Positions 95-41,977 of a stretch of 64,000 bases of DNA are shown here, piece after piece. Location of the stretch: contig NMRA01000266.1 in assembly GCA_002633005.1 (NCBI GenBank), positions 12,544 to 76,543 on the forward strand, written 5' to 3'. This stretch comes from Phoronis australis. Taxonomy: Eukaryota; Animalia; Phoronida. The stretch's first letter is position 1. Every line of letters starts with the position of its first letter. A program made the translations under genes and the position numbers. Under the pieces are notes generated by a model. The model had not been told where the DNA came from. It ran no database searches and worked only from the letters and a program-made list of their open reading frames with translations.

Positions 95-322
95 TTGGGA
101 CACTCAACTCTTTTACAACGTGGTAATTCGTCATAACGTAGGTGGGGCCTACTCGGAACCCAGACCCCAGTCCAATTCCATTCGACCTTGCAATTAACAC
201 AACTGACGGGAGGATATTCGCAAAAGACTGGAGTAAGTGCGCGGACATCAACTTCTTATTGAGATCATGGAACAGTGTTGAGTTCGCAGACTGTGCAGGA
301 GGCAGTATGAGTGGAAAGAAAT
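95..322 (-). CDS. Exon: N-terminal part of a trypsin-like (Trypsin_2/FAM111-like) serine protease domain including the catalytic His
   Basis: tttttcAG acceptor (323-324) and GTAAGT donor (89-94). Encodes ...LLQSFANILPSVVLIARSNGIGLGSGFRVGPTYVMTNYHVVKELSVP. SV..I...G(S/T)GF.VG...(M/L)TN.HVV is the chymotrypsin-fold His motif. Confidence 0.8.
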
Positions 323-3300
323 CTGAAAAACATACAATTTTGAATTAATTTTTAACAGTGTTATTAGTTATAAATCCTCATACAAATATTTTGGCTCTAT
401 TCTGGATCAACACCTTGACTTCAAAGAAAATTTGAATGAAAACGTTATCTGAAGCTTCTGGTAGAACGTTAGGGAAGATATGCTCAACATTCTGCGACAA
501 CAAGAATCTAGGATTCGAAACGTTTAATTCGTGAGTGGCACCGATTTTAGATTACGGGTCATCTGTTTGGGGTTACAAAAATTATGGTTATGATGAAAAT
601 ATTCAAAACTGAGTTATGCGTTTTCATCTAGGGGTCAACCGATTTACAGCCACTCATGCTGTTAGTGGCGATGGGGGCTGGGACTCCACCGGAAATAGTC
701 TTGAATTGAATATGTTGCGTCTTTGGAACAAACTAGTGGCCACAGGTGATGACAGGTTACTAAAGAAGGTATTTCTATTGGACTATTCTGTTGGTACAAA
801 TGGTTGGATAGACGGCATAACTGGCATGCAAGCCCGTTTTCAAAATGTTACTACTTGTAACATAGTAGATGCTAAAAACAAACTATTTGAATACTCGAAA
901 CATGTTTGGGCTGAGTCCGTTGTACCAGAACCCCAGTTGAGAACCTACATTTTTATTTAAGCACGAGTTTTTAACTGAACAGTATGTGAACCTTAATTCA
1001 TCTCGTTCCGAGCGATCTCTTTTGGCTCAGTTTAGAGCAGGAAATCTCCCACTGCGCTAGGAAACTGGTCGTTATGTAAACACACCTGTAAGACTTTGCC
1101 TGTGTTGTGATTCTAGTTCTATCAAGGATGAGCTACATTTTGTGTTTGCTTGTTCTCTTTATAACTCGCGGAGGACTGATCTTTTTCATAATGTTTCACT
1201 CCAAGTCCCGAACTTTACAGATTTCAGGTTAGATACGTTAAAACTGCTGTTTCAGTTTTTCCCTAGGTAGTTTTCCAAATATATCAAGTCTGCTTTTGAA
1301 ATTATAAACCGTCGCATTTACGATAAATCTGAGTAGTGTGGTTAAAGTGACTAATAAGCCCAACTGGACAGGGTACTAATGTTTCTTACGAATGTTCTAC
1401 CTATAGCTGTTAGAATTAATTGTACTTGTCACTATAATGAATAAATACAATACAGCTAATGCCTGTGAAGTTGAATAGGGACAAGTTTATTCAAAATTTG
1501 ATACTTCCAAGATTTCCACTGAAAGTGGGAGTTAGCTATCAATTTTAAATTCTCCTTGGAACTAGTCAATTACCAGACAGCCTTGTATCCACGTCCAATA
1601 TGTACAATTCGCCGTCGTTTCCCTTTCTTACTTTCAATATGACGTCCGCCTCACCCTTGGGGATAAGTTTACCTTTTGACTTAGCAAAACCTTCCACTAC
1701 TTTACCACATTGTTTTTCAGTTGGAAAAGCACATGCTCCTAAACTATCGTCGGATGAATCCGCAGTCGTTTGTTCGGCCGCAGGCGGTGGAACTTCAATG
1801 GCAGACCCGTACTTTTGTTCCAGTTTTTTTAAATCACGTTTCAGATCCATTTGTTTCTGGAAATACAATTCGAATATCTTTTAATTCGGCTGTCTATTCT
1901 GTATTATAATAACTGTCTAAAACGCTAAAAACTGAACATCATGCTTCATAAAAATTTCCTTCTTCAATTTTTATAGGAGCCCAAAGCTTCCAAAGAAATG
2001 ACACTTGATTACTAAATAAGATCAGGCTCTACAAGCTGGCTTGTCACTGCGCGCAACTTTAGACACCGAACATGGTCTCATCGAATAACAAACAACCAGT
2101 GCCTTGCAAAATCAGAAATTGACCCTCATCTGAATAAGGAACAATTATTACATAATGTTTCCCAAATCAAAAGTTCGCCTCTTGGACTAATCAAACCCAA
2201 GTGAATCATTTGACACCATGTGGCGTGAGATCATGTTACAGTAATGCGGACAGACGATCATAGTCACGATTGTGGTATAAGTACCTGAACCATTGTTATT
2301 TGTTGTGTACCTTAAGCATAGTTTTAATTTTCTTGACCTCATCTTTGCCTGCAGAGGTAAGTTTTCCGCACACGTCGTGCGCAGTTTTTTTGTCCTGTAA
2401 ACATAGAAATACAAGAACTTACGCTGGGCCACTGCAAACACCAAGAACCAAAATAAAAATATAAGCTAGTTTGTCAAAATGTATTTAACGAGACACAGTA
2501 AAGTAAGAACAATAACGATGGCAGAATTGTTTGAATCCGTCAAATGTTGACGTGTTGGACTAAAGGGATCATTCTAAATTGAAGGTGTGCTTCACAATGG
2601 CATAAGGCAGTTATAGAGAACAGAGACTTTGCACTGCCTAGTTCATTACTTATGTACGAAGAGTAGAACAACTTCCTTTACAACTCAAGTTGAGATAAAT
2701 TGTCATCTAGGCAAATGTCAACTTTCGTGAATAGTAATCTTGCTTCATAAAATCACTTTCTGATTGTCAGTTATCAAACCATGCAGTCATACCGTTTTCG
2801 GATTCCTCTAGGAATTAAAAAGAACCGAGCTTTAACATCCCGACTGAAAATTTGTGAAAAGTGTATTTGCAATTTTTCAAAACAATAAAGAACGGACGAG
2901 TGTACCATTTGTTTTTTGACCCATGTGCAGACCGCAAAGAACCTTTTATCTTCGTTACTACGTGTACTTCACACAAGGTAATACGAAAACAATCCGGTTT
3001 TCAAAAAAATGTCCTAACCCATCCTTTTAGACTACCAGCTGAGAGTTCTGTTGTATTCATCTGAGACCAGTATCTTTTTGCTCATGAACATTGAAATGAA
3101 GGTTCACAAATCTACATGGCTAAGAATCCGCCAAAACAACCAAGAAAGTTTCTCAATTTTAAGACGTCGACAGTAAAAAGGCTTAAATTAAGGAATAGAA
3201 TTTCTATTTCAGGAGTTTCCTAACAGTATTTATGAATCATATCGAGAATAGGACTTTTCAGATGGACTGAATATTTGCCATATAGCTTGTTAAGGTGACA

Positions 3301-9300: not shown

Positions 9301-12300
9301 CGTGACAATCAGATTGAAAAGGGAAGCACTCGAATAATGGTCGTAGACATATGTATATGCCAAAACAGGGTGAAGAAATCGTTGCAACAAGCAAAAGTTA
9401 TCCGACAGTGGTTTTTTTAGAACACAAGACTAGGGGTGCCGCATTATACAAATCCCTCGATTGCATTTATGCTTTTTAGCTAATGGGAAGTAGCAGGTGC
9501 CAGAAGGAAATATGCAACGTCTCGTTTCTTCTCGAGAATAAGAGAAAATAGGACTCTAGTGTATGGTGGTACGTCAATTTTGCAATACGTCGAAGACCGG
9601 GACATTTTGATGGCATACGGGATGGCGGCAAAACTTTAAAAAATTGTGACACTGCATTGTCCTTATCAGTCTAATTAGCTTGGGCGGTTCTCAAATGGAA
9701 AGCAGACAACATTAATTTGATATCCGTTAAGCGATATTAGAGTGCGAAAAATACCAATGAAATTTCTCCGTCAAAAAATTTATTAAGTCGTTGGGTGAAC
9801 ACGTGGATCCACAACCAAACAACAGTGTCATTAGTTACCTTATCGCGTACATCCACGGTGGCGTGGTTAGCCAGTAGCAACTCCACCATCTTTGTGTGAC
9901 CACGCTCAGCCGCCTGGTGCAGTGGTGTTCTGCGCACCTATATACAAGTAGTATACACTGTAAAATGGAGATGTGTGAATGAACGATCAACGTTTAGATC
10001 ACCTTAACATCGACGGGAGAAAGTGAAGATAAAGAAAGCATTACAGGCTAAGACGCTACAATACTTGTAATGATTTCAAAATATAAGTTTTACAGGTGAT
10101 CAAAAAACGTTAAAATAACCACACCACATGTTGTAGAAGACGACTGTACCATTTGTTTTTGCAAACCGCAAAGTACCTTTTATATTCGTTCCTACGATAC
10201 TCAAGGTAATAGGACAGCAACCCGTTTTTCAAAAAAACTGTCCTAAGTCATCCCTTTACATGACAAGCTGTTGTTCTACGGTTATATAATGTATTAATCT
10301 GAGACCAAGTTGTTTTTGCTAATTGACATTGGAATGAAGGTACGCAAATTTGCATGGCTAGGAATCCGACAAAGCAACCAATAATGTTTCTCAATTCCAA
10401 AAATTGATAGTAGAAAAACTTGAATTAAGTTATTGCACAGAATCATCTCCCAAAACACTCATTGTATTTGTTTATGTTTCAGGAATTTCCTAATAGTATT
10501 CATAAAACATATCGAGAATAGGACTTTTCAGACGGACTGAATATTTGCCACCTAGCTTGTTAAGGTGACACACAAACTACCCTCGATCAGCACAGGAACA
10601 GAGTATAGACATCATAACTAGCCAAACGTTCTATCATGTGACCTGATTTCAAGCCAATATCACATTGTAATTGGCTTGTTCAACTATTAGAGGCACAATA
10701 AGTACCCTATAAATCATTTCACCTGTACAGGTAAGTACAGCTGTACAAATATAATGATCCGATTTATGTATTTATTCCATACACGTTGAATCATTCGAGT
10801 GGATTACGACAATGTGATAGTGTTTTCTATGTTTACCTACCGCACAACTTCAAACGGGGACCTCTGACAGGGAAAGTTCAAAAGGTAAGACAAGTCGATT
10901 CGACGTCGTTAGCCGGTTCGATCATCAAAATTTCCAAAAATTGTTGTAACGCATACAAAGCCCAGCAGTATAAATAACACTCAACATGCAATCACGTCCC
11001 AAACGCAACATGTTGAACACAACTGTTAATTGATTGACACTTCTATCGCAGTTTTCAATTGCTAAATATTATGGCGGTGGTAATATTGAAATCGAGAACT
11101 CTTAGCAAGCTTTTTCAACGAAGGAGGACCTATGTTATGCCTGACGCCAGCAATTGCTTTCTTGGTGTGCGTGAACTTGAATTTTGCTCAGTATGAACAC
11201 CGTGCATGCGTGAGCTTGGATTTAAATACACTTCAAAGAAATCAGGTGAATAATTTCTTCAATGTAGAGATTTTTTTAATTATTGATCCCAGGAGCACTT
11301 ATTTGTCCTGTTAACGAATTCTAGTAACGTGAACGCAATTACATGTATTTGAGTGAAGAACCCACGCTCTCTCGGCGTAGGCCCATCAACAATCTTGAGG
11401 TTAAGCGAAATCCCAAGTTCATATTCGACAGTTGCATCTTCAATTGACACTTCGTCCGGCATCCTATATATATTTTCTTAATGCACCCCACCAAAACTAA
11501 AGTCAAGCTAAGAATTTGTATTTAATTCAGTTCATTTATAAAAAATCGATGTCATGTAGAAAGACAAACATTTAGGCTTAGGTTTCGAATAAAAGCATTT
11601 GGGTGAAGATCCGTTTCATGAATTTTTTAACAAAAAGGAAACCGAAATAGTATCTTTAACTTCAATATCAAATACTGTTTGTATTAAGTTATTTCAAGGA
11701 AATGTTACAAATTATGTCTACTGAGGCAGTCTTTGACACTTAGTTTCAGTTCTATAAGCATTGGTTATGATGAGAATAATTCATTTTGAACCGATAAATT
11801 GATGTCGGCCACAAACACGTAGATATTATGCGGCCTTGCACGTGGTAATAACGGCATACATGTAATTTTTTATTCTTTTCTGACACAAGCCACTTCCAAT
11901 GCACTTCGTTTTCTGAAGGAAATCGAAAAAACGATTACCCGGCTTTACTTGCAGCTTCCTGGTTCGCTAAAATGGGAATGATACGCCACACCACAGCGAC
12001 ACACACTCGGCTGAAAAAAAAAACACTGACGTCGCTGCGTCGTGTTTTCATCTTCCTGACCGGCTAACGTGACACCTCTCCGTCGGCGAGGTGAGATCGA
12101 CCGTATACGAGGTGATGTGGATGTAGACTGGTTAAGACGACGGCTCTTCACTTCGTGTTCTAATCTTATAAAAGCCTAAAATTAGGAATCCTGCGAGCAC
12201 AGTGGTTAATCAAAAAACTCTGCGAGTGGTAAGAATTCCTTGAATTCTGTTTTGACAAAATTTGATTGTGTAACTATCAAAAATCCACGTAATACGATGG

Positions 12301-15300
12301 GTGCACTCCGCGTCTACGTCTAGCTCCGGACCGTCAGACAACAAATTCGTGGTGTAAATCATCAGACACGTACCCTTATACCCCTGCACACTTGTTGATT
12401 ACGGTATGTTTCATGGGAGCTGACAAAAAGCGAGTATGCTGGTCTGGTAAATGCGAGTTTGCTGGTATAGAGGAACGTAACTATAATTTAGTGGAGCAGC
12501 AACTGAATCGTTTCCCTCACCAAGTCATATAGGAATTGTTCTCTAAACCTACACCTATTTTAATAGGTTAAAACAGGTTAATTGAAATTTATGAAGCACA
12601 GTCTTGGTAGCTTCGAGCTAACTGTTAAAGTCAGGGCACGGCGTTGAATCATATTTCATAGTAAGTTAAATTCAATTGAAGAGCAATCAATGAATATCGT
12701 TTGATCATTGAATGAAAACCGTGTAGGAGCGGTTATTGTTGTACAGTGTTTTAATAGATTCTTTTTTATTTTGCGTTTGGTAAAACGTTAGCTAGCGTCA
12801 CGTTATTGTTAGCCAATTTCTGTCGAAGACGATCCTCTCAAATCTAGAAAAATTGGCAAATTATTTCACTGAATGTCCTCGAGCGCAGCAGATATTGCAA
12901 TATATTTTACGTTTGTAACATTTGAAAAGAAACTTGTTTGAGAAAAATAACATTGCACCAATATTCGAAACAAAGATGCCACGTCATTGTTGAATAGATG
13001 TAAACATTTGCCGATAATGCAAAAACGGGACAATCAGATTGAAAAGGGAAGCACTCGAATAATGGTCGTAGACATGTGTATATGCCAAAACAGGGTGAAG
13101 TAATCGTTGCAACAACCAAAAGTTATCCGACAGTGTTTTTTTGTAGAACACAAGACTAGGGGTGCCGCAATATACCAATCCCTCGATGGCATTTTTGCTT
13201 TTTAGCTATTGGGATGTAGCAGGTGCCAGAAGGAAGTATGCAACGTCTCGTTTCTTCTCGAGAATAAGAGAAAATAGGACTCTAGTGTGTGGTGGTACAT
13301 GTACGTCAATTTTGCAATACGTCGAAGACCGGGACATTTTGATGGCATACGGGATGGCGGCAAAAGTTTAAAAACAGTGACACTGCATTGTCCTTATCAG
13401 TCTAGTTAGCTTTGGCGGTTCTCAAATGGAAAGCAGACAACATTAAAGGCGAAGGCACCCCTTTTCCACGTCATTTTGACCTAAAATAAGGTTGGTTGGT
13501 TATCCTTGAAATATTTTCCACTTAATTACAGCTTTTCGTAATTTTATTAATTACTCGTCCGCTACTCCAGAAGTGACGTTTTAGGAGGCAAGCGTTTCCC
13601 GCCACTTGGTTTTGCGTTGACTTTACCGTGCGAATCTATTCTATTCTACTTTTGTTTTGTGCTGTTTTTCAACAATTGTCGCCACCACTTTCCATCGGCG
13701 AGTATTCTGCGGCAAGATAGGTTAGTAGAGAACTCAACTACGTTGGATTTAGNNNNNNNNNNNNNNNNNNNNNNNNNNNNNNNNNNNNNNNNNNNNNNNN
13801 NNNNNNNNNNNNNNNNNNNNNNNNNNNNNNNNNNNNNNNNNNNNNNNNNNNNNNNNNNNNNNNNNNNNNNNNNNNNNNNNNNNNNNNNNNNNNNNNNNNN
13901 NNNNNNNNNNNNNNNNNNNNNNNNNNNNNNNNNNNNNNNNNNNNNNNNNNNNNNNNNNNNNNNNNNNNNNNNNNNNNNNNNNNNNNNNNNNNNNNNNNNN
14001 NNNNNNNNNNNNNNNNNNNNNNNNNNNNNNNNNNNNNNNNNNNNNNNNNNNNNNNNNNNNNNNNNNNNNNNNNNNNNNNNNNNNNNNNNNNNNNNNNNNN
14101 NNNNNNNNNNNNNNNNNNNNNNNNNNNNNNNNNNNNNNNNNNNNNNNNNNNNNNNNNNNNNNNNNNNNNNNNNNNNNNNNNNNNNNNNNNNNNNNNNNNN
14201 NNNNNNNNNNNNNNNNNNNNNNNNNNNNNNNNNNNNNNNNNNNNNNNNNNNNNNNNNNNNNNNNNNNNNNNNNNNNNNNNNNNNNNNNNNNNNNNNNNNN
14301 NNNNNNNNNNNNNNNNNNNNNNNNNNNNNNNNNNNNNNNNNNNNNNNNNNNNNNNNNNNNNNNNNNNNNNNNNNNNNNNNNNNNNNNNNNNNNNNNNNNN
14401 NNNNNNNNNNNNNNNNNNNNNNNNNNNNNNNNNNNNNNNNNNNNNNNNNNNNNNNNNNNNNNNNNNNNNNNNNNNNNNNNNNNNNNNNNNNNNNNNNNNN
14501 NNNNTCCGGTACGCAGCAACAGTGTGGCATGTTGACTGACTAGTAAATGAAAGCAAACGACGACGGAACTTAACACAACCGAGGTAGAACAATGACTGAC
14601 TCGGCAGCTCTCACAGTCAGACTATATGAAAAGAAATTGGCGCGAAATGCTTGCCTCCTAAAACGTCACTTCCGCAGTAGCGGACGAGTAATTAATAAAA
14701 TTACGAAAAGCTGTAATTAAGTGGAAAATATGTCTAGGATAACCAACCAACCTTATTTTAGCTCAAAATGACATGGAAAAAGGTTGCCTTCGCCTTTAAT
14801 TTGATATCGTTAAGCGATATTAGAGTGTGAAAATACCAATGGAATTTCTCCCTCAACAAAGTTATTAAATCGTTGGGTGAACACCTTACTCCACAACCAA
14901 ACAGCAGAGTCATTAGTTACCTCATCGAGGACATCCACGGTGGCCTTTTTAGCCAGTAGCAACTCCACCATCTTTGTGTGACCATGCTCAGCCGCCTGGT
15001 GCAGTGGTGTTCTGCCCACCTATATACAAGTAGTATACACTGTATAATGGAGATGTGTGAATGAACGATCAACGTTTAGATCAACTTAACAACGACGGGA
15101 GAAAGTGAACATAAAGGAAGCATTACAGCTAAGACGATACAATACTTGTAATGATTTCAAAACACAAGTTTTACAGAAGATCAAAAAACGTTAAAATAAC
15201 CACACCACATGTTGTAGAAGTCGACTGTACCATTTGTTTTTGCAAACCGCAAAGTACCATTTATATTCGTTCATACGTTACTCAAGGTAATAGGACAGCA

Positions 15301-18300: not shown

Positions 18301-21300
18301 GCAGGTGCCAGAAGGAAATATGCAACGTCTCGTTTCTTCTCGAGAATAAGAGAAAATAGGACTCTAGTTTGTGGTGGTACGTCAATTTTGCAATACGTCG
18401 AAGACCGGGACATTTTGAAGGCATACGGGATGGCGGCAAAAGTTTAAAAAAGAGTGAAACTGCATTGTCCTTTTCAGTCTAGTCAGCTTGGGCGGATCTC
18501 AAATGGAAAGCAGACAACATTAATTTGATGTCGTTAAGCGATATTAGAGTGCGAAAAATACCAATGAAATTTCTCCGTCAACAAATTTATTAAATCGTTG
18601 GGTGAACACGTGGCTCCACAACCAAACAACAGTGTCATTAGTTACCTTATCGCGGACATACACGGTGGCCTTGTTAGCCAGTAGCAACTTCACCATTTTT
18701 GTGTGACCACGCTCAGCCGCCTGGTGCAGGGGTGTTCTGCGCACCTATATACAAGTAATATACACTGTAAAATGGAGATGTGTGAATGAACGATCAACGT
18801 TTAGATCAACTTAACATCGACGGGAGAATTGAACATAAAGAAAGCATTACAGGCTAAGACGCTACAATACTTGTAATGATTTCAAAATATAAGTTTTACA
18901 GGTGATCAAAAAACGTCAAAATGACCACACCACATGTTGTAGAAGTCGACTGTACCATTTGTTTTTGCGAACCGCAAAGTACCTTTTATATTCGTTCCTA
19001 CGTTACTCAAGGTCATAGGACAGCAACCCGTTTTTCAAAAAAACTGTCCTAAGTCATCCCTTTACATGACAAGCTGTTGTTCTACGGTTATATAATGTAT
19101 TAATCTGAGACCAAGTTGTTTTTGCTCCTTGACATTGGAATGAAGGTACGCAAATTTGCATGGCTAGGAATCCGACAAAGCAACCAATAATGTTTCTCAA
19201 TTCCAAAAATTGATAGAAGAAAAACTTGAATTAAGTTATTGCACCGAATCATCTCCCAAAACACTCATTGTATTTTTTTATGTTTCAGGAATTTCCTAAT
19301 AGTATTCATAAAACATATCGACATCAGGACGTTTCAGATGGACAGAAAATTTGACACCTAGCTTGTTAAGGTGACACACAAACTGCCCTTGATCAGCACC
19401 GGAACAGGGTAATAGACATCATAACTAGTCAAACGTGTTATCACGTGACCTGATTTCAAGCCACTATCACATTGTGATTGGCTTGTTCTACGATTTGAGG
19501 CACTTTAAGTACCCTATAAATCATTTCACCTGTACAGGTAAGTACAGCTGTACAAAAATAATGATCCGATTCATGTATTTATTCCATACACGTTGAATCA
19601 TTCGAGTGGATTACGGCAATGTGATAATGTTTTCTGTTTACCTACCGCACTACTTCAACAGTGACCTCTTCCAGGGAAAGTTCAAAAGGTAAGTCAAGTC
19701 GTTTCGACGCCGTAAGCCGTTTCGATCATCAAAATTTCCAAAAACTGATGTAAAGCATTACAAGCTCAGCAGTATAAGTAACACTCAACATGCAAACACG
19801 TCCCAAACGCAACATGTTGAACAAAACTGCTAATTGATTGACCCTTCTATCGCAGTTTTCAATTGCTAAATATTATAGCGGTGGTAATATTGAAATGGAG
19901 AACTCTTACCAAGCTTTTGCAACGAAGGAGGACCTATCTTATGCCTGACGCCTGCTATTGCTTGCTTGGTTTGCGTGAACTTGAATTTTGCTCAGTATGA
20001 ACACCGTACATGCGTGAGCTTGGAATTAAATACACTTCAAAGAAATCGGGTGAATAGTTTGTTCATGGTAGAGCATTTTTTAATTATCGATCCCGGGATC
20101 ACCCGTTTTAGCAGTTAACGAATTCTACTAACGTCAACTCTATTATTTCAGTGAAGAACCCACTGCCCATATACGATCTTGAGATTAAGCAAACTTCCAT
20201 CTTCATATTCGACACTTGCATCTTCAATTGACACTTCGTCCGGCATCCTATATCTTTTTTCTTAGTGCACCACACCAACAATAAAAATTAGGCTAAAATC
20301 TGTATTTAATTGGGTTCATTTTGAAAAATTCGATGTCATGTAGAAAGACTATTATTTGGGCTTAGGTTTCGAATAAAAGTGCTTGCGTAAGATCCGTTTC
20401 ACGAAGTTTTTAACAAAATTGAAGTGGTAATAGTATATTTAAGTATAAAATCAAATGTTGTTAGTATTTAACTATTTCATTGAATTTTAAAAATTGCATC
20501 TACTGAAACAGTCTTCGATACTTAGTTTCAGTTTAATAAACAGTGGTTATGATGAGAATAATTCAGTTTCAACCAAAAAATTGATCTCGGCCACAAACAC
20601 GGAGATATTCCACGGCCTCATATGTGGTAATAACGGCATACATGTACTTTACATTCTTTTATGATGCAAGCGACTACCAATGCATTTTGCGTTCCGAAGG
20701 AAAACGGAAAAACAATCGCCCTGCTTTTCTTGCAGCTTTGCTTCATGGTTTGCTAAAACGGGAATGATACGCCACACCACAGCGACACACTCTCAGCTGA
20801 AAAAACGCTGACGTCGCTGTGTCGTGTTCCCATCTTCCTGACAGAGTAACACGACACCTCTCCGTCGGCAAGGTGAGATCGACCGTATACGAGCTAGGTG
20901 ATGTGGCCTGTGAAACCTAACGATCGAACCCGTGAAGTCTTCGGCGGATGAGCTTTTGACTAACTAAGTCGGGATTGGCGCCTGGTGAGTTGCCATGTAG
21001 ACGTTTATTACTCTGCCTTCTGTTTCAAAATTAATTATTCTCATCCTAACCAATGCTTACATAAAACTGAAACAGAGTCTGTCTCATCAGATACAATTTG
21101 TAGTGCCTTTGAAGTATTGGTGAGTGCAAATGATGAGAAGCCAGCAAAAAATAAATATAGATTATTGCATGGCGAAGTTGTTATCCCTGGTTATCTAGAG
21201 CCCGAGTGGAATTTGGAGAATTATGGCCGAGGGGCGTTAGCCCCGAGGGTGATAATTCTCCAAAATCCACTAGGGCTCTATATAACGGGAATAACGAATG

Positions 21301-24300
21301 GGAACATGTAATAATCTAACACATACTGAACGAGAAAAATTGCATTGAATCGATCTACCTTTATCGACTCGCCTCGGTTTTGTAACTACTTTCTATGTCA
21401 GAGGCCCGGGATCGGAGGTCGTGACCTTTTAAGAAAAGCCGAGCTATTTTTGTCAAATAATGCTTATTCAAAGCCAATTGAAAATTTAAAACAAAATAGA
21501 AATAAAGTGAATTCATAAATTAAGGTTTAGCAACTATTATTGCTCACTACACATTTTATCACGCTAATCTTCGACCGGGAAGATATCGTCTGCAAAAAGT
21601 AGGTTACCACAAGTAACTGACTATAATGCTCAAGTCAAAGGATCTTGACGACACGACACCTGCATTCAAATTGGAGAGCGGTGATTTACAAGTGAGAGAA
21701 CACGAGAGAAAATTTTCACTGACTTAAAATATCGTTTTTATGGAAATTATACGTCTTATTACACGGTTGTATCTGCCATTCGAGTCTAATATTGTGGTAT
21801 AATTTATACCACAATATTAGCCTCGAATGGCAGATGCAACCGTGTAATAACCCATTTAGTACCGACATTTATACGCTATGAAAAATAAGACGCATAATTT
21901 CCATAAAAACGGTATTTTAATTCAGTGAATTTTTTCTCTCATGTTCTTTCACTGGGAAATAACCGATCTCCAATCTGAATGCGGGTATCGTGTCGTCGGG
22001 GTCCTTTAACTTGAGAATTATTCTCAGTTACCAGCAGACGTTCGTTTCTCGGTCGAAACTTACCGTAACAAAATGTGTTTTAAGCTACAATAGTAAACCT
22101 TAATTTATAAATTCACTTTATTTCCATTTTGTTTGAATTTTTAATTGGTTTTGAATAAAAACATTATCTGACAAAAATATCTGGGCTTTTCTTAAAAGGT
22201 CACGACCTGCAATGTTTCTCGTTTAGTATGTTGTATAAATAGATTATTACATGTTCTCAGCCGTTATCGCTTAATATTTGCCAACTAGCTTCTGAAGGTG
22301 ACACACAAAATGTCCTCGATCAACTGGGGAACAAAGTATAGACAGCTTCGCAGAAAACGTGTTATCAAGTGACCTGAGCTCCAACCACAATCGCGTAATA
22401 ATTGTTTCTTTTTCTAACGCATTATGGGCAAATTAATTCCCTTATACACTGTATATCATTTCATCTGTAGAGAAAAGTCACACTGCACTGTCTTTACTTC
22501 TATGGAGGTTATCAGATTCTCCAATCAAAAGTAGACCAGATTTAACTGACATTGTTTAGAGACAATAAATTGTGAAAAAATATCAACAAAACATGTTCCT
22601 TGACAATTTTAATCGTTTCAATCAACCAAGCAGCCTGCGTGCCATTAATTACCTTATCAAGGACATCCACGCTGGCCTTATTGGCTAGTAATAACTCTAC
22701 CATCTGCGTATGACCGCGCTCTGCTGCCCAGTGCAGCGGTGTCTGGCCATCCTAAGTAAAATATCATGGAGATATGTGAAAAGACTATCAACGTTTAGAA
22801 CTAATTAACATCCAAGAGGGAAAGAAAACTTGTAATGGGCATAAATGAAACATTACTGATCCCCTAAGGCGTTATAGTATTTGTAATGATTTCAACTCTC
22901 AAGTGTTGCAGGTGATTTTGAAACGCTGCTGTAACAAAGGAACATGCTGTAGACGTCGACTCACAGAAATTACAAACTAGTAAACGCCCCTCCATATTTT
23001 GTTTTTATACACCGGTTTACCTGCTTCCTGTTTAACATAAATTTGTCATGTGAGAGGAAGTTTATCTATGAGAATTGTAACAACGTTAAGTCGAAAAATA
23101 TATGACTGGCATAATTCAAACGTCACTGTTTCTTAAAAGGCATGTACTGGGTACACAGTGAAAAACACATGTAAAAATCACGAGAAATAAAACATCTATT
23201 TACACACAAAGTTCATAGTTAAAGTTTAGTCTAGCTCAATGAATTTCGAGAAACCAGATATCGCACGTGCTGTCCCCGGTCTGCAGAAACAATGGACAAG
23301 TCACGCTTCAAAACCACTAAGTCAAACGTCCATCTTAATTACTATCACGGAAACGTTGGAATAACATATCTGCACACAGAATTCAGATAGCTTGCAGTAT
23401 TTGTAACAAAAGTAACATTGTCTGAATTTTAAAATCGCCTCAAACAGTTCTATTACCCTGTCTCGCGCGTTTACATCGCCCCCTCTGTCCAGCAAAATCC
23501 GCAACTCCTCTGTCTCGCCCTGCTCTGCTGCCAAATGAAGTGCAGTACAACCCTGTAAAAACAAAGAACAAGCAATGCGAAACTTCACAATCACTAACTT
23601 CAGCGTTCACCTTAAGTACTACTCCCGGAATCATCGTTTGACAACAGGTAACAAGAGTTAATATTATTACAGTAGTGCAAACAGATGATCATCGTCATTA
23701 TTGTGGTAACAGGTATCAGAACCGTTGTTATTTGTTGTTTACCTGAAGTAAAACTTTTATTCTGAAGAACTTATCTTTGCTTTCAGAGCAGTATCTTCCG
23801 CAAACGTCGAACGCAGTCATTTTTTCCTGTAAAGATACATGTAGATATACATGTACGCAGTGCAATTGCAAACACGAAGAAGGAAAAAAATAAAATAAAA
23901 CAGCCTCCTTATTTTTTTGATTCATTGTGATATTTAAAATGAGGGTGACCTAATCAGTGATAGCACTGCTTTCCAAGAGGGCCCTCAACAAAAACAGTAG
24001 TATAACAGAATGGAGTATTTAAATAACAATTAAATATTCGTAACAAAGATACAGTGAAAACAGGTTGAGAATTAAGACAATAAATCAATGACAAAGAATG
24101 ATTTGCGACATAGTAAGAACAAGAACGATAGTAGAATTCTTTTTGGCGTTGGTGACATGTGAGACGCAAGGGATCTGACAAACAAATTTTATGTTTCAAA
24201 TTTACTTCAAGATGTGCTTCATTATGACATAAGACAGTTATGGAAAACGCTTAGTACAACGTTCCACAGTCAATTTCATCAGGTATGTATGCAGACTGAA

Positions 24301-27300
24301 ACAACAACCCTTACATGTGAAGTTGAGACAAAGTGTCGTCAGGGAAAAGGTCAACCCCCGTGATGTACACTATTGCTTCATGAAATCATTTTCTTACTGT
24401 CAACTGTCAAATCAAAAAAAGCATATTTCTCCGATTCCTTGAGGAATGAAAACACTGAACCTGTGCTTCAACATATTAAATGAAATTTTGTGAAAAGTGT
24501 CTCTGCAATTTTTCATAACCATAAAATACGGATGAGTTGAATGTACGATTCGTTTTACAACCCATATGCAAATTTTCATTACTACATACTCATGACAAGC
24601 TAATACGACCACACAACACACTTTTCAAAACAATGTCTTAATTCATCATTTTATAATACCAGCTGATAGTCCTGTTATTTTACGGTTATATGTTGCATAC
24701 TAATCTAAGACAAAGGACATTGCAATGAAATTGCGCAAATTCGCATGGCTAAAAATGCACCAACGCAGTCATGGATATAACTGATGGTGAAAGGCTGGAA
24801 TTAAGCTATAGCACAAAGTTAAGATCATTGCCGACAACAGCCATTGTATATATTCCTGTTCCAGGGATTTTCAAAAAGTACATGTGATTGTGAATTAAAT
24901 TGAGAACAGGTTTAAAACTTGCCCCCTTGCCTGTTAAGGTGGCACCAGATCCAAACTGTGCTCAACATACATGTATGAACAGCGCACAGAAGCATCACAA
25001 GACAGAGGAGTTATCATATGCAATAGTAGACGAAATAGATGTATAACCAGCATATAAAACGCCTTAGAATACAGTTCATCCGGTATGTCATTAATAAATA
25101 GTAGAAAAAGCAACGGTCCGACGACTGCCTTGCGGTACACCAGCGTTGACGTACCCAATTACCAATTCATCAGAAACAACTCTATCCACAGATGTGGTGC
25201 TTTTGCCTGGCAAAACCCCAAATTGAGCAGAATATAGTAAAGGGTGACTTATCAAGTGGTCATATACGGAAAATATATGATCGTTGTTCACTGCATTGCT
25301 GACAGTTACTAAACAATGTTTTATGTTAATCGTTTCAACGATCAATCTTGGTATGACACCGGCTAGTTCTAATAACATGGCCACTCACTGACTCCTATTC
25401 CATTTTGATAACAAAACTTTGTACACATGGTTGGTGTTAACAACGGCACTGTGAGATTGCAGGTTTTGAAATATTACCCTGGAGACGGTAGTCATACATT
25501 GGACAATTATGTGCCACTGAAAGATCAAACTCATAAAGACCGCAGGAGAACGGGAGTGCCGATACCGACAAATCCGACATGTCTTGATCTAAAATTGGAA
25601 ACGAGCCTACATAAACGAAAACGGTCATGTTGTACAGTAGTTTCTGTTAAATTCATATATCATGTATGACTTCTACTTTGGACAAATACAATTTCAATAA
25701 TCATGTAAAATGTTAACATGAACTTTCCAGCCCATGTGTAGTGTTTGCACGGAGGACAAAGTCAACTAAACAAATTGGTATAAAAAATATTTTAAAATGT
25801 CAAGCCATGCCTTGGGAACATCAAAAGTCAAAACTGGCGGATAAGATTGACATATAAAATTTCCACATACTAATAATTGTTTATGCTATCTTCTTCCAAA
25901 ACTCCCTTAGTTTTTCTTTCAAAATGTTCCAGTTTTATATGAGCAGCTATCAAAATACTTTTCACGACTTTTTTAGCAAAACATTGATAAGTAGCATAAG
26001 GAATACTTTGATATTATAGCTTTGCACTTTTGTGATGGAAGGACAATTCAATGTCATTCTATGATAGGAATTACAGTACAAGATGCCTCTGTGTACTCTT
26101 ACAGTGAATTAAATTGCCGTGATTAGTTTATTTGAGTAGGGCACGAATAAAGAACTCTCTGTGCTAGTGCGATCCATTTAAAGGTGACTGAGGTAATTCT
26201 GTTAACAGTGTGTTTCTCTTTACATAAAATGTAACTAATAAAACAATTTACTCAAAGCCACAGTCAATGTCCTCAATTGAATTAGGCGTTTTGCTCTCAT
26301 GAAAATGGTTTCATGGTATCAAAGATATTAGAGTTATCTTTGATGGTACTCCTTAAAGCAACAGGATTCTTTGCTGTTACCAATAAGAACATCAGAACAA
26401 TTGTCAACTTAATGAAATGACTGCCGGAGTTTTTGTGGTTGGCAGTCTCTAAAATTACACTTTCTAAACTGGCGCATGTACACATTGCCTGTGACGTCAG
26501 TTGGTAATTAAAATGCATTCCCGGATATTTACGAGATTGTTTTACGATAATATAGTCCCAAGCTAAACGGAGCAAAATGTAAATATCAGTAAGCTTCAAA
26601 CTCGAATCTGATTAGAACCTATTGTTTTAAATTATACTTTCTGGGCCCACGGTGGTTAATCAAAAACTTGGCGAGTGTTAAGAATTCTTTGAACTGTGCG
26701 TTGACAGAATTCCAATAAACAACTGTAACAAAACTCGGTAACCCTGTGGGTGCACCCCGAGCCAACGTCCAAGTCCGAGTTGTTACATAGTAGAAATCAA
26801 AGATGATCACTGTGTGGAAAAGATTGTCATCTACATTCCAGGTGTAATTCTTTGGACTCCATTTACGGACCAGCAGCGTGTTTCTAAAACCCACACACAC
26901 GTTGACTATGCTTCATGCAAGTTGGCAGGGGTTTAAAGGACCGCAACTATATAGGCACAGCAATGGAACCGTTTCCACCCAAAAATCACGCGCGTTGTCT
27001 TCTAAACTTACACGCATTATCAAGTTATTCGTAATGTACATGTATATAGAACGGATCTGGTAACTTCTCGCTAACTGATTGAGAGATTCAACAACGCTGA
27101 ATCATTGTATGGTAAGTGAAATTTCATGTGATGAGCAAGTAAGAAATATCCATCATCAATGAAGAAATCCATGTAGGCGTTTTACCAGATAGATATTGTT
27201 ATTGAAGACATGCAGAAGTGTTTCATCCGATGTTGTGCTAGGTAAAATGTTACCTAGCGTCACGTTATTTTCTGTTGACAATATTCTCAAATCTATACAA

Positions 27301-30300
27301 ATCGACTTAAATATGCTTTGAATGTTCACAAGCGCAAAAGACATAGCAACTTTATTTTACGATGTTGTCAGAAAAGAAACTGGAATGTGAAAAATAAAAA
27401 TGCACCAATATTGATAACAAAGACACAATGTTCTTTCGATCACCAGGTGACTAGTTGTCAAAATTAGCCGACAATAGAAAAAAAACGGGACAACCGGATT
27501 GAAAGGCGAGAGACCCGTATAAAAGCTATACAACTGTGTACATACCAAAATGTACGAAATTAAAGCGCTGCAACACACAAAATTAACCCGACAGCGTTTT
27601 TCGTGGAACGGAAGACACGGGTTCCGTAACACGCAAACACTCCTGAAGGCCTCTTTACTTTTTAGCGAATGGGATGTTGCGGTTGCCGGAAGAAAACATG
27701 AAACGTATACGGGAAAATAGAACTTTGGTGCATAGTTATATATCGATTTTGCATTGTGTCAAAACCGGGACATTTTGATGGCGGCAGGAAATAAATTAAA
27801 TCTGTGACACTCCGATAAGCGCAGCTTAACTTTCGGGTACACTGTGTCGGTAAGGCAAAATATCGGATTCTTTTACAGGGCAGAAATCTCATTGCTTGTA
27901 TTTAATTCATGGGTATAGGTACATGTAAATACTGCAGACACTTGGTATCTGCTACACAGAAATCGACGCCACAAAGCTGACGCATGGCCTGAACATGAGA
28001 CGTAAAACTACATTGTTTATTCAACAAAGTATTTGCCTTGGATGAATGATCAGGGGCACTTGACGACCCTCTCGCGTAGGTTTGGGGTCTAATTAGACTT
28101 TGGTTGAAGAAAACGACCAGTTTGAACTCCGACACAGAGCCTCTTGCCTGGTATTTTGTAGCAGTTTTCAACAAGACTCCTTATTTGTACAGTATTACCA
28201 AAAATGTTGTCTCACTAATAAAAAATGCAGCCAACGGCAAAGCTAAGAGTTTGGCAAAATGCAGTCAAGCTCGTCATTCGTATTTTTTGCGCAAACACCC
28301 CTATAAACTCGAGGTCTTTCAGGTTCAAGTTGCTGAACTTCAGCAAATGTAATATTTGACCATGAAAGAACATTCCGTATAAAACATGCGGCCAGCATGG
28401 TTCCATTCACAAGTGTGATAGTGAAGGCGTCTGGTGTCACTTTTGCTCAGTTAACATTAAAATAGCGTGTGGTGCACAAATATTTATGTCACTGAAACGG
28501 GCATCCACCAATCTATTTCAAGATTACGATTTTTAGGCCAAAAGTAAAAAGACATGACCTGCCTTGTTATTAAGTAAAATAATTATTCTCCAAAGTGGGT
28601 TTTAATACAAGAAGCAGATCATTTTTGATAAAATACTCTTGCTAAATGAATAAATCCTCATACTCAATGTATCACGTGACTGTTGTTTACAAAACTGTGG
28701 AATAAGGTTTATTGCAAGAGGTCGTTATATAAAAAATACGATATTCTTGAAACAAGTGAAGGAGACGACAGCGATACGAGATTGTGTTTCCTACAACTAA
28801 ACGCAGCACGCATCAGCAAGTCAGCCTGTGAACACATTTTAAACGGTCCACACACAGACCTTGGATTTACAGTGGACCAGGAATGAAGATCACCGCTCAT
28901 TTATGGGTTTTATAACCCTCCTCTTTTTCTACGGCTTAGTACAAGCAGAGTTCTGAAACCGTGAAATAATGACCTGTTCTTTCAAACGGCTGGAGTTAGA
29001 CCAATTCACGCCCTAATTTAACCCAATTATAAATTATATAAATCAAGTGATGATGGAGTTAAAAATAAGTCACAAAGTTATGCCTACGCAACTTTGTAAG
29101 TAATCCTTGTATTAGATTAAATACGACTAAAACCTTCGTAAATGTGGTGAGAAAATTGTGTACCTGTTGCCAACCATTTATAGCGTGGTTGGTACTACTT
29201 TAGCTAATTCTCCAATATTACGATCAGACAAGCGCCTTTGGTTTACAGAGTGTTCGAGAAGTTACATGCAGTAAAGAAGTGACACTTTCTAAAAGTCCAA
29301 GCAGGAGGCAGATCATGCTTGATGATATATTTATTATAAATGAATAATTCTTCCAAATCAAGGTTCGTTTAAAACACATTTATTGCAGTGTCAGCTTAAC
29401 ACCGAGTACAACACTCTTGCGGTACCTTGTTGACAGTACTGACGTCACATCCGCTTTCCTTGCACAGCAGTTTCACTACCTCCGTATGTCCACATGCAGA
29501 TGCCACGTGCAGCGGTGTGTCACCCCTCTACAGTAATTGAACAAAAATAGATAATGTTGATCAGCATTATACATAGTGAAGTGGGTGGGTAAATAGAGCG
29601 TCCCAATTTATAGTTTTGAAGTTCACAACTTCACCATCAATTGCTACACTTATGAAGAGGGTGGCTCAACACAGCGCGACTAAAATCTGATGCTTAAACT
29701 CGGACATAACAGGAGCGGCATTCTTTATATATTCGTCTGATGTGTGCTGGAGTAACGTGGTTGAAAAGATTGACGAGTTAGCGTTATATATTACATTACA
29801 GCGGCATTCATTTAGTAAGTGGTGCGAAAATACAAGTAAAGAACCGATTCATTGTAAAACTTTGTGTGACGTGAAAATTGTTTCTAATTACTTAAAGTCG
29901 CGTGCACGTCACGTCACGTGCGGTGGAATGCAAGGGAAAATGTCAATGTTTGAAACAAAATCATAATGGTAATTTTAAATTAAATTACAGAGTGGTTCAG
30001 CCTAGTCGTGTAAGTTGCGTTCAACTAAACAACCTGTGTGTCATTACTTACATTATCATGTACATCTACACTGGCCTTGTTGACCAACACCTCCACTGTG
30101 TCTGTATGACCCTCCCCTGCTGCCCAGTACAGCGGTGTCCAGCCCACCTATGTAATATATAATGGAGATGTGTGAATGGACGATCAACGTTTAGAGCTAA
30201 TTAACACACACGGGGGAAATTGGACTTGTATGGTGACATAAATGAAACAATACTGACCCCTCTAAGACGCTACAATACTTGTAATGATTTCAAGAATCAA

Positions 30301-33300
30301 GTGCTACAGATTTTAAAACGTTACAGAACATGTTACAACTCTACGCAGCTTTGGTTCTTCACCTAGAAAAGCAGACGACATATAACTTGTCATTGTTTTA
30401 GGACATTAAAATGTGAAAAATTATCAACAAAATTTGTTCCTAAACATTTTAACTCATCTGTTTGTTAACAACTAGTTCAACTAAACAACCTGTGTGTCAT
30501 TACTTACCCTATCACGTACATCTACACTGGCCTTGTTGGCCAACATCACCTTCACTGTGTCTGTATGACCCCACCGTGCTGCCACGTGCAGCGGTGTCCA
30601 GCCCCACTATGTAATATATAATGGAGATGTGTGAATGGACGATCAACGTTTAGAGTTAATTAACATACACGGGGGAAAGTGAACTTGTCAGGTGACATAA
30701 ATGAAACATTACTGACCCCTCTAAGACGCTACAATAATTTTAATTATATCAACCGGGAAATGATAAGTTTGCAACAAAGCAACACAAGTATCAACCAGTC
30801 AGCGCGGGTTTGGCAGTTTTCGAATGGAAAGCAGACGACATTTAATTTGACATTGTTTCGAGACATTAAAATGAGAAAAATATCAAAAAACTTTGTTATT
30901 AACAGTTTTTATCATCACTTGTGTAAACAACTAGTTCAACTAAACAACCTATGTGTCATTACTTACCCACCCACCACGTACATCTACACTGGCCTTGTTG
31001 GCCAACAACACCTCCACTGTGTCTGTATGACCACGCTCTGCTGCCTCGTGCAGCGGTGTCAGGCACAACTATGTAATATATAATGGAGATGTGTGAATGG
31101 ACAATCAACGTTTAGAGCTAATTAACATACACGGGGGAAAGTGAACTTGTAAGGTGACATAAATGAAACATAACGGACCCCTCTAAGACGCTACAATATG
31201 TGTTATGAATTCAGCCCTTAAGTGTTACAGGTAATTTTAAAACGTTGCATAAACAACAGAACATGTTGTAGACGTCGACTGCAAGAAATTACAGAGCGCC
31301 TCTATAACCTCTCCATGTTGTGTTTATGCAGCAGCTTACTGTCTTCCTGTTCAAAATAAGTTGTATTATTGCATGGACGTTTAGCTTAAAGAATAGAAAG
31401 GTATCAATTTAAGTCATCAACTTAATTATTGTTGACAGGATTCAAACCTCACTGTTTCTTAAGATGCAAGTTGTACCAGGTACAAACTGATGAATACGTT
31501 TGAAAATCACGAGGAATAAAACTTGTATCTACATAGAACATATTTACTTAGGCTTCAGACAGTATACAACTTCTATAACAACGATAACATTGTCTTAATT
31601 CTAATGTCGTCTCAAGTGGTTTCTATTACCCCGTCTTGCACGTCTACATCGGCCCCACCCTGCAACAGCACCCTCACCACCTCCGTCCTGCCCTCCAATG
31701 CTGCTATGCGAAGTGCTGTGTTGCCCTGCAGAAGCAATGAACAAGTTATAGCAAACTTCACAATCGCTAACTACATCATGAATCTTAATTACTTATCACG
31801 GAAACGTTGAAAAAAAATATTAATTTGCAAATAAAATTATCAAATTTACTCTCTGTGTACCAGGTAATATATCAGTCGTGTTAGAATAGATATCAGTTTT
31901 AAAGAACAAGATTACGTCGTTCTCGTAGTACATTTATTAGTGTCAATAAGAATTCTCACCGTGAAGACATGACATATTCTTTGCAAAATATGCAGCTTTT
32001 TATCAAACTATGCACACCTGGTTGTAGCTAACACAAGCTATCATTGTTATTGGCAAAACATGTCATTGATATTCACACTTAATAATCACCTCTAAGAGAA
32101 CAATTTCGTGAGAGTAAAATGTTCAATTCTATTTTTGTTTTTAACCAGCAAAACGGGGCGAAATCAACTTGCCGGAAAATCAGTTCTTTGCAGGAAATAA
32201 GATACAATAGACGACAATATTGAAGCCAGATGCCCAAAACATGCACTTTATCGGCTATACATGAATATTGCTATTATATGGATAAAACTGTGGGTCTACC
32301 CGAAACCAATCCAAGCTGGATGTAGCAATTGAAAACCATGGTTTAAATTATGAAGTCTACATGTAGTTTCAAGCAATAGGGAAATGCCACATTTTACTTA
32401 GGCCAGAAATCATTTCTAGATTTGCAAAAGAACATGGAATAAAGATACGAGAGGACTTCAATGCACGGTTAATATGACATCGGAACGGGATAACGGGGAA
32501 TCTGGTTGTGGTGTATATTACTACATAGGAACGCAGGCACGGGATTCAAAGACTGACAAGAGGTCAATAGCATCGAAAAAAGCTAAATTTTGCAAAATGT
32601 GCTGTTAAAGACTAAACCCTTATATACACTTTGAACACATGTTAAAGGATTTTACCAAAACTTTCTTTTTCTGGTGTGTAAAGTCAATTATGCAAACGTT
32701 ACCATTCCGACGCACATCCAAACAGTTTTAAATTATTCTGTGCAGAGACTTGAAAGTACGTCTAGACAGGCGAAGAGTTGCTTTTAAAATGCAGCACTTT
32801 GACACCCAGTTTTCACATGTACACGCGATAAATTGATACACTTGCCTCTTCATTGATACAATGTTACGCATATTTAAAGAAACATTTCCTGGTCACAAGG
32901 AACTGATTAAAGATACCATGCCCATTATCAACAAAATTGTTTGCATTTTGACTTACTGACACTCGTGTTGTTCCTTTTTTACACACAGACGTTCCGAAAC
33001 TTGTGTTTTGACAATGATACCTTGTTACTGACAGTTTGAGAAAATCGGCTTCTGTGCTGCCTATTAACATTTCGTTTTAGATAGTGCTATGGGTTTAAAT
33101 TAAGTCAAATTATGAGTGTCAAAAATTCCACTGCAACGGTACGAACACAACAGCGAAAAATTCAACGAAACATTAGCCTTAATTTGATGTTCCGTCACGA
33201 CTAGCCGACTTGACATGTACTTGAAGACAACGGTTACTTGGACACAAACACATGTAGGTAAAGGAATTTCAGTAAGTACAAAATACGATGAGTAATATCA

Positions 33301-33617: not shown

Positions 33618-33661
33618 TTTAATAGTTTTGAGAAACAATTCTTGGGTTAGCAATACATCAG

Positions 33662-33669
33662 TGACGTCA
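33662..33669. promoter_or_regulatory. Perfect CRE/ATF palindrome TGACGTCA
   Basis: 45 nt upstream of the putative start codon. An 8-mer can occur by chance. Confidence 0.25.
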
Positions 33670-33932
33670 AGACTAGTGCATGAATTTTAAAGAACAAGAT
33701 AACGTCGTTCTCACGTACTTTTACATGTGCCATTGGTAGCAATTCCTAAACAAAGCTGTTTTTAAGAACCTACAGTTAGGTAATATTTACTCGTAGTGGT
33801 TAATTTGATAACCAACTTTCATCAACTGAACATCTAAAATATGTCTTAGATACGACCGGCCGCACGGCCATGACAAAAAATCTTTCTAATTTACGAACAA
33901 AGTTACGTCGTTCCCTTAAATTGGCGTCTAAT

Positions 33933-41970: not shown

Positions 41971-41977
41971 ATTTAAG

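Follow-up and report, generated by a model that had tools for sequence, protein, structure and literature searches.

Tandem single-repeat ankyrin exons in Phoronis australis: probable cassette homogenisation combined with diversifying selection on the predicted binding face

Which process changes the residues of three neighbouring ankyrin exons of Phoronis australis while the DNA around them stays nearly identical? The exons, named C, B and A, were analysed in a window of 64,000 nucleotides (GenBank contig NMRA01000266.1, positions 12,544 to 76,543), which also contains the four homologous exons F, G, H and I; these seven were compared. The window has GT-AG introns, a GC content of 38% and mobile-element remnants.

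All ten ankyrin exons in the window are of phase 0 and bounded by AG and GT, and each repeat thus corresponds to one symmetrical-phase exon (Table 1). Exons C, B and A score above the Pfam cut-off of 21.1 bits for the 33-residue ankyrin repeat with its TPLH motif (PF00023), which indicates one repeat per exon. Around each of the three exons, about 129 nt on the upstream and 35 nt on the downstream side are 93-96% identical between the duplication units, with 6, 11 and 9 differences per 164 flanking nt in the pairwise comparisons. No start exon was found in the window upstream of cap-like ankyrin exon 1, the most upstream coding exon found. The regions of the two C-cap-like exons are 73% identical and gave no Pfam match. 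According to the predicted splicing, 14 exons of the window join in frame with matching phases over 555 codons without a stop. They form two ankyrin blocks, followed by a linker and by an exon whose trypsin-like character is weakly supported.

Table 1. Positions in the window of the ankyrin exons and associated predicted features.
Feature	Position	Strand	Remarks
Cap-like ankyrin exon 1	31630..31725	-	96 nt, phase 0; Pfam Ank E=8.7e-9; splice sites
Ankyrin exon C	30967..31068	-	102 nt, 34 codons, phase 0, AG..GT-bounded; Pfam Ank 34.6 bits
Ankyrin exon B	30508..30606	-	99 nt, 33 codons, phase 0, AG..GT-bounded; Pfam Ank 42.6 bits
Ankyrin exon A	30052..30147	-	96 nt, phase 0, lacks one Leu codon, AG..GT-bounded; Pfam Ank 35.9 bits
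Three duplication units	30017..31197	-	about 460 nt each; carry exons C, B and A
Ankyrin exon D	29426..29527	-	102 nt, divergent class; Pfam Ank E=1.7e-10
Predicted 3' UTR of short ankyrin-only isoform	28700..29398	-	AATAAA at 29384, 29335 and 28713; RNA depth
Predicted C-cap-like exon 1	23743..23826	-	84 nt, phase 0; open, AG/GT bounded
Cap-like ankyrin exon 2	23457..23552	-	96 nt; paralogue of 31630-31725
Ankyrin exon F	22653..22751	-	mosaic exon
Ankyrin exon G	18646..18744	-	within 3.7-5 kb tandem duplication
Ankyrin exon H	14921..15019	-	
Ankyrin exon I	9839..9937	-	
Predicted C-cap-like exon 2	2311..2394	-	84 nt, phase 0
Predicted linker exon	1574..1856	-	283 nt, phase 0 to 1; open frame
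Predicted trypsin-like peptidase exon	95..322	-	GSGF...TNYH motif; Pfam Trypsin_2 E=0.0018, sub-threshold

The alignment of exons C, B and A revealed differences at 13 of 33 codon positions. All 13 change the amino acid and none is synonymous, as a preliminary description of the locus had stated with correctly quoted codons. In total 23 nucleotide changes were counted, 17 within seven surface codons and six outside. In addition, there are two whole-codon indels, a Leu codon missing in A and an extra codon at the 3' end of C. The preliminary description passed over the two indels and six framework substitutions at codons 2, 7, 19, 21, 23 and 32. These include Gly2>Cys and His7>Tyr, which affect residues described as structural in the available text of PMC9611651. 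At the scaffold codons each pair of exons differs at 4 sites, 0 of them synonymous. The protein identity to B, intron-derived ends included, is 74% for C and 78% for A, which is below the 85% repeat identity used as criterion in the accessible part of PMC4986451.

Repeat positions were assigned by alignment to designed ankyrins and from the library description. The surface set comprises six codons (33, 1, 3, 8, 11 and 31), the positions randomised in the ANK-N5C library according to the part of PMC4308713 available to us. Thirteen of the 23 nucleotide changes fall in these six codons (P = 4e-5), and the reported concentration at codons randomised in designed ankyrins is thereby confirmed. When codon 12 was added, which we take to match a position randomised in the original DARPin design, 17 of 23 changes fell in seven codons (P = 9e-8). 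All six codons with multi-nucleotide changes belong to these seven, in which 15 changes affect codon positions 1-2 and 2 affect position 3 (P = 0.044). All four bases are involved, with transitions and transversions mixed. CpG hotspots were rejected as a cause, since the CpG sites at synonymous positions of codons 5 and 7 are unchanged synonymously.

For the comparison with the neutral rate the flanking intron was used, in which a three-way count among the units gave 13 changes on 160 nt. The surface codons carry 17 changes on 21 nt, an approximately tenfold excess (Fisher P = 2e-10). With the whole intron as reference, which is more diverged (61 of 355 sites, 17%), the three pairs gave P = 0.003, 2e-6 and 3e-4, and the internal codons 3, 8, 11 and 12 alone gave P = 2e-8. 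These counting tests treat sites as independent and assume a star tree of three sequences only. The lack of synonymous change, on which the preliminary description had relied as an argument for selection, carries little weight: 1.6 changes are expected at the flanking-intron rate (P = 0.2). Within the C, B and A scaffold no purifying signal was detected (6 non-synonymous changes and one codon loss), and the six framework changes compare with 4.8 expected at the intron rate. Between C/B/A and F/G/H/I the scaffold showed a pN of 0.11-0.19 and a pS of 0.46-0.57, which shows long-term purifying selection. The surface pN of 0.49-0.70 is similar in size to the pS to exon F (about 0.5).

Exons G, H and I differ from one another at 7-9 of 99 nt versus 3-7% in their introns, without any enrichment of the changes in surface codons (3 of 8, P = 0.21). 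For exons I and H the preliminary description had claimed the same bias as in C, B and A; its count of 7 non-synonymous to 1 synonymous differences is right, but does not differ significantly from 3:1 (P = 0.37), and the bias was rejected. Its 4:3 count for exons I and G was reproduced. In the 5' half of exon F, 0 of 8-9 synonymous sites differ from C, B and A, and in the 3' half 7-8 of 12-13 (Fisher P = 0.007-0.015, for 3 non-independent pairs among 9 tested). Exon B and exon D have an exact 18-nt run in common across codon 8. Codon 8 of exon A equals that of F, codons 11-12 of C equal those of G and I, and codon 1 of A equals that of G, H and I. For the codon 3 states of C, B and A no donor was found among exons D, F, G, H and I.

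Transcription was assessed with three RNA runs (X5, X6 and X7) from other samples, all of one study. Minus-strand reads of all three cover exons C, B and A. Among 15 joints listed of 175, seven connect ankyrin exons, and for six of these seven the order does not occur in the window; joints in such orders were seen in X5 and X6, not in X7. At these junctions codon 1 encodes W, D, M or R and codon 3 N, the loops are two codons shorter or one longer, and D-like first codons stand on C-like exon bodies. Forms of exon A with and without the Leu codon were observed. Over a 14-kb stretch the reads are mostly 85-95% alike, and alleles, paralogues and isoforms are consequently not separable in them. 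When exon D is read through its donor, the frame meets a stop 9 codons further on. RNA depth over 28505-29438 amounted to 20-31 in X5 and X6 and 0-3 in X7, with molecule starts at 28776/28786. It was 0.1-3 at 23368-23834, and among the 15 joints listed of 175 none leads from exon D to 23826 or beyond. We infer a short ankyrin-only isoform which ends in exon D and the 3' UTR. The summed depth of the X1 contigs over the three units was 305-433, compared to 8-11 in the unique flanks; this is not a copy number, but hints at tens of related copies. Somatic reshuffling of exons is highly unlikely.

We consider it probable that C, B and A combine a homogenised cassette with diversifying selection on the surface of a predicted immune-type receptor. 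The three exons would derive from recent tandem copying of a phase-0 cassette that encodes one ankyrin repeat. Duplication and gene conversion would homogenise the cassette and leave scaffold codons and flanking intron near-identical, and diversifying selection would retain changes at the binding-face codons. Between the variable codons lie others that are identical at the third position, so that a conversion tract presumably could not homogenise the scaffold and yet leave the variable codons untouched, unless selection or fresh input were at work. In a templated patchwork, older paralogous exons would form a large pool from which short conversion tracts copy codons into the exon 5' halves, and multi-nucleotide changes would result with little local selection. 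The mosaic exon F, the codons in common between B and D (18-nt run), between A and F (codon 8), between C, G and I (codons 11-12) and between A, G, H and I (codon 1), and the RNA junctions that pair D-like first codons with C-like bodies all suit such a patchwork. However, several of the common codons may be ancestral, and the codon 3 states lack a donor among D, F, G, H and I. Moreover, tracts from classes with a pS near 0.5 should carry synonymous changes, of which none was seen, and the surface-codon diversity of the pool itself would still require selection. A patchwork of this kind is an unlikely origin of the differences.

Drifting copies with a tolerant surface would also accumulate changes, if the flanking intron were constrained or recently homogenised and the neutral rate thus underestimated. 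The six scaffold changes and the codon loss, the similarity of the surface pN to the pS to exon F, and the neutral appearance of G, H and I are in line with such a relaxation. Under relaxation the rate can at most reach the neutral one, but the excess persists against the whole intron with its 17% divergence. There are 0 changes at the roughly 19 synonymous sites of the scaffold that lie in between the variable codons, frame and splice sites are kept in all three exons, and RNA covers them. We regard relaxed constraint as quite improbable; the six framework changes, some of them damaging, may reflect partial decay of C, B and A. The preliminary description had also considered an enzyme that rewrites surface codons in germline or soma. 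Multi-nucleotide changes confined to six surface codons, variant codons rich in G and the gain or loss of whole codons within G-rich runs might suggest a deaminase-like or retroelement-like activity. Diversity-generating retroelements have a template repeat, adenine-specific changes and a dedicated reverse transcriptase. All copies that the self-comparison of the window revealed bear exons, a separate template did not appear, and with changes at all bases such an element was rejected; the only Pfam match related to reverse transcriptase, a zf-RVT fragment, lies at a distance of 30 kb. The spared third positions (2 of 17) and the mixture of transitions and transversions at all four bases further argue against targeted rewriting, which we consider very unlikely. 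It is extremely improbable that the differences stem from collapsed repeats with errors of assembly or sequencing. The window does contain one N gap and single Ns, and all X1 contig depth contradicts the window letter at several listed sites, among them the first base of codon 2 in exon C. Errors have no reason to favour surface codons or codon positions 1-2, though, the short form of exon A is also present in X1 contigs and RNA, and other samples vary at the same positions. Of the original interpretation, diversifying selection on the presumed binding face of C, B and A is thus supported by these sequence counts, whereas targeted diversification found no support.

The predicted non-self receptor, for which new binding specificities would be selected, may carry a further domain. 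With matching phases and an open frame, the ankyrin repeats would be fused to a predicted trypsin-like peptidase. The linker acceptor is the one among 87 acceptor-like sites in the window that opens 94 codons; the linker matched no known family in Pfam or the Atlas. The peptidase-like exon reached 19.5 bits with Trypsin_2, below the Pfam cut-off of 27.6, and of the catalytic triad only the motif with the His is contained in the window, past whose left end the gene runs. PDB and Atlas leads for this exon were weak, and the database search for relatives gave no FAM111 match and a single repetitive one, which was rejected as spurious. FAM111 proteins, which occur in animals such as lancelet and soft coral, have a Trypsin_2-type domain and an antiviral role, as far as described in the available part of PMC9798293. 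That text contains no mention of 'ankyrin', and the exon here has only the sub-threshold match.

The proposed regime was compared with known systems. In fungal NLR proteins such as Podospora Pa_3_8560 the ankyrin repeats are near-identical and vary in number, and positively selected sites lie on the inner helix and the beta-hairpin, which the accessible part of PMC4986451 reads as concerted evolution plus diversifying selection. The Phoronis locus likewise has near-identical repeats in one gene and a non-synonymous excess at binding-face positions, here by counting tests on three exons. In contrast to these NACHT/NB-ARC proteins, as there described, a separate phase-0 exon encodes each repeat here and has been duplicated together with flanking intron. 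No NACHT/NB-ARC, STAND NTPase or Roc-COR domain was found by Pfam in 25 plus 143 scanned frames, the 143 being most of 175 listed, outside 10.9-21 kb, of a gene that extends past the window. Three weak Pfam matches on two intronic frames of the 143-frame scan were treated as chance. Brown-algal ROCO-LRR and NB-ARC-TPR genes, according to the available portions of PMC3341825 and PMC11378527, encode each repeat in an exon of its own; there the repeat exons are shuffled and alternatively spliced, and the concave face is under diversifying selection. One repeat per symmetrical-phase exon is common to them and our locus. As far as these portions go, they differ in their LRR or TPR repeats, Roc-COR or NB-ARC core and phase-2 LRR exons, compared to ankyrin and phase 0 here, and in inverted or inactivated intronic exons; no reverse-strand ankyrin exon copy was found in the window.

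In Branchiostoma belcheri LOC109479344, compared as protein, near-identical repeats differ by 0.68 per surface versus 0.09 per scaffold position, most strongly at positions 11, 1, 12, 3, 8 and 33. It is presumably an ankyrin-Roc-COR-glycosyltransferase-CARD (ROCO) protein, judged by precomputed Pfam accessions. Other domains follow its repeats, and its 45% identity is to exon B only. Designed ankyrin libraries (DARPin, ANK-N5C) have a cap, variable internal repeats and a cap with the same positions varied, in the parts of PMC4308713 and PMC9611651 available to us; being synthetic, they offer a structural analogy only. A homologue search with the exon alignment yielded generic ankyrin proteins only among the best 120 of 4169 matches (best identity 67%), and a further one 3 short fragments only. 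Among metagenome contigs, 0 loci matched a 31-nt pattern of the intron exactly.

Fungal NLR ankyrins and the brown-algal receptors with one repeat per exon already exemplify this evolutionary regime. The locus of P. australis combines both, with ankyrin repeats as single phase-0 exons in an animal; in the open-access literature, with subscription journals largely outside, no paper was found on such an animal array or on an ankyrin-trypsin-like fusion. An immune role of the receptor is predicted. If the peptidase link is true, the protein would have a receptor-effector architecture without an NTPase switch. The family would then test how invertebrates diversify intracellular recognition, with many exons in one alignment and known binding positions.

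In the window, which is eukaryotic, intron-rich DNA with 38% GC, six-frame scans revealed ten ankyrin exons, every one on the minus strand.

Ankyrin exons and other features of the window (positions along the window)
Feature	Positions	Strand	Remarks
Exon C	31068-30967	minus	102 nt, phase 0
Exon B	30606-30508	minus	99 nt, phase 0
Exon A	30147-30052	minus	96 nt, phase 0
Exon D	29426-29527	minus	
Read-through 3' of D	28505-29438		
Degenerate intron copy	23281-23369	minus	no intact exon after it
Exon F	22653-22751	minus	
MITE-like element	21411-22213		palindromic, nested inverted arms
Tandem duplications	7215-20906		3.7-5 kb, 87-91% identical
Exon G	18646-18744	minus	
Exon H	14921-15019	minus	
Exon I	9839-9937	minus	
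N gap	13753-14504		
Open frame	613-957	plus	115 codons, no Pfam match
Direct duplication	39424-41978 and 45360-47890		2.5 kb, 91%, either side of split transposase
DDE_Tnp_1_7 transposase	42263-43685	plus	split across two frames
DDE_Tnp_1_7 transposase	51385-53097	minus	571 codons open
zf-RVT fragment	61457-62086	plus	

A duplication unit of about 460 nt surrounds each of the sister exons C, B and A. The codons quoted for them in the preliminary description are correct. Differences occur at 13 of the 33 aligned codons and each alters the amino acid; codon number is also unequal (A one fewer, C one extra). The lack of synonymous change had been taken as a signal. Given 13 changes on 160 nt in the conserved flanks of the introns, 1.6 synonymous changes are predicted in the exons, and finding none is not beyond chance (P = 0.2). 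The claimed clustering at ankyrin binding positions held. According to a section of PMC4308713, repeat positions 2, 3, 5, 10, 13 and 33 are randomised in the ANK-N5C library, corresponding to exon codons 33, 1, 3, 8, 11 and 31. With sites taken as independent, a star tree and n = 3 sequences, these six codons contain 13 of the 23 changes (P = 4e-5), the seven surface codons including codon 12 contain 17 (P = 9e-8), and these 17 changes on 21 nt exceed the 13 on 160 nt of intron (P = 2e-10). Under the same assumptions the excess was stable whichever of three ways C's extra codon was aligned, persisted against the whole intron (61 differences on 355 sites; P = 0.003, 2e-6 and 3e-4) and was found for internal surface codons alone (P = 2e-8).

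The remaining scaffold codons showed 6 non-synonymous changes against a neutral expectation of 4.8, which is about equal. Among them are Gly2>Cys and His7>Tyr, at repeat residues termed structural in a passage of PMC9611651, besides one codon loss. Perhaps the three copies are young, or in partial decay. Long-term scaffold conservation is seen against exons F, G, H and I (pN 0.11-0.19 versus pS 0.46-0.57). For G, H and I the earlier counts were right but amount to no excess (P = 0.37; surface enrichment P = 0.21). Each of these three exons lies singly in one of the multi-kilobase tandem duplications; together with the small units around C, B and A this indicates that ankyrin exons multiply on both scales.

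Diversifying selection and targeted diversification had both been proposed. The seven surface codons carry 15 changes at codon positions 1-2 versus 2 at position 3 (P = 0.044), the changes touch all four bases, and no synonymous change was found at synonymous CpG positions of C, B and A. Thus, selection-filtered point mutation fits better than a codon-blind mutator. In the 5' half of exon F 0 of 8-9 synonymous sites differ from C, B and A versus 7-8 of 12-13 in the 3' half (P = 0.007-0.015 in three non-independent pairs out of nine tested), and B and D have an 18-nt run in common which spans codon 8. Exchange among the ankyrin exons is visible in these sequences, so conversion probably belongs to the mechanism, in which it would act as homogeniser and perhaps also as donor. 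The surface diversification signature of this family of ankyrin cassette exons is real and statistically strong, and its probable cause is diversifying selection superimposed on exon duplication and conversion.

Reads of three RNA runs from one study (X5, X6, X7) and one DNA contig set (X1), under a common species label and at 85% likeness, cover positions 21500-35500. Most are 85-95% alike and therefore come largely from alleles or paralogues. Over 29906-31306 the first-mate-plus depth was 25-64 versus 0.2-13 in the other direction; such depth corresponds to minus-strand RNA in most stranded libraries. Among the 15 listed of 175 exon joints, 7 link ankyrin exons; X5 and X6 supply all of these, X7 none. 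A C-like to B-like joint follows window order, and the other six connect B with D, D with D, B with B, A with B, D with C and B with C, each in that order. In five joints (12 of 140 rows listed) codon 1 reads W, D, M, R and R, codon 3 is N in two, and loop length differs by -2 or +1 codons. For the codon that A lacks, 28/38, 24/31 and 2/8 reads contain it and the X1 contigs do not; hence the two forms both occur. Codon 2 of C has a Gly-type letter in 24/39, 10/24 and 3/3 reads.

In X5 and X6, depth stays at 20-31 beyond exon D as far as roughly 28.5 kb, versus 0-3 in X7. The covered stretch runs past a stop that lies 9 codons inside the intron and reaches AATAAA at 28713, which suggests a short ankyrin-only isoform. 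Read-through and listed joints are strong in X5 and X6 and nearly absent in X7, where depth over C, B and A is higher; the samples differ in the family members expressed or carried.

The predicted exon order is cap-like, C, B, A, D, 84-nt C-cap-like, cap-like 2, F, G, H, I, a second 84-nt exon, a 283-nt linker and a 228-nt exon. Joined, the model comprises 555 codons with zero stops; every exon is AG/GT bounded with compatible phases, and no start exon was found. The 228-nt exon exhibits a GSGF...TNYH motif, a Trypsin_2 match below threshold and weak PDB/Atlas leads, and database searches gave no relative. We infer a coupling of the ankyrin block to this predicted trypsin-like peptidase. Since no joint from D to downstream exons is among the 15 listed of 175, from reads over 21500-35500, the model may represent two separate genes. 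Scanning 168 frames, all outside 10.9-21 kb, detected neither an NTPase nor a death-fold nor any other domain. The intron and acceptor region preceding the cap-like exons has a third, degenerate copy, and the 115-codon frame lies on the opposite strand in the intron between linker and peptidase-like exon.

Mobile elements also lie in the window. The DDE_Tnp_1_7 transposases are of the piggyBac type, and the zf-RVT fragment is likely a LINE remnant. The MITE-like element has a summed X1 contig depth of 11,000-20,000 and RNA from both strands.

Fungal NLR ankyrin repeats are described, in part of PMC4986451, as having high internal identity and positively selected inner helix and hairpin sites. 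Among 124 proteins, 5 contained a testable number of near-identical repeats, and 5/5 vary more at the seven positions than elsewhere, most strongly the lancelet protein P0033 (0.68 versus 0.09). In this ROCO-type protein (Branchiostoma belcheri LOC109479344) near-identical ankyrin repeats of two classes alternate, and their surface positions are hypervariable. Searches largely limited to open-access papers turned up no account of a diversifying animal array with one ankyrin repeat per exon. By analogy, the locus would work like the receptors compared here, yet it is not placed as NLR, ROCO or FAM111, and the predicted receptor would have an immune role.
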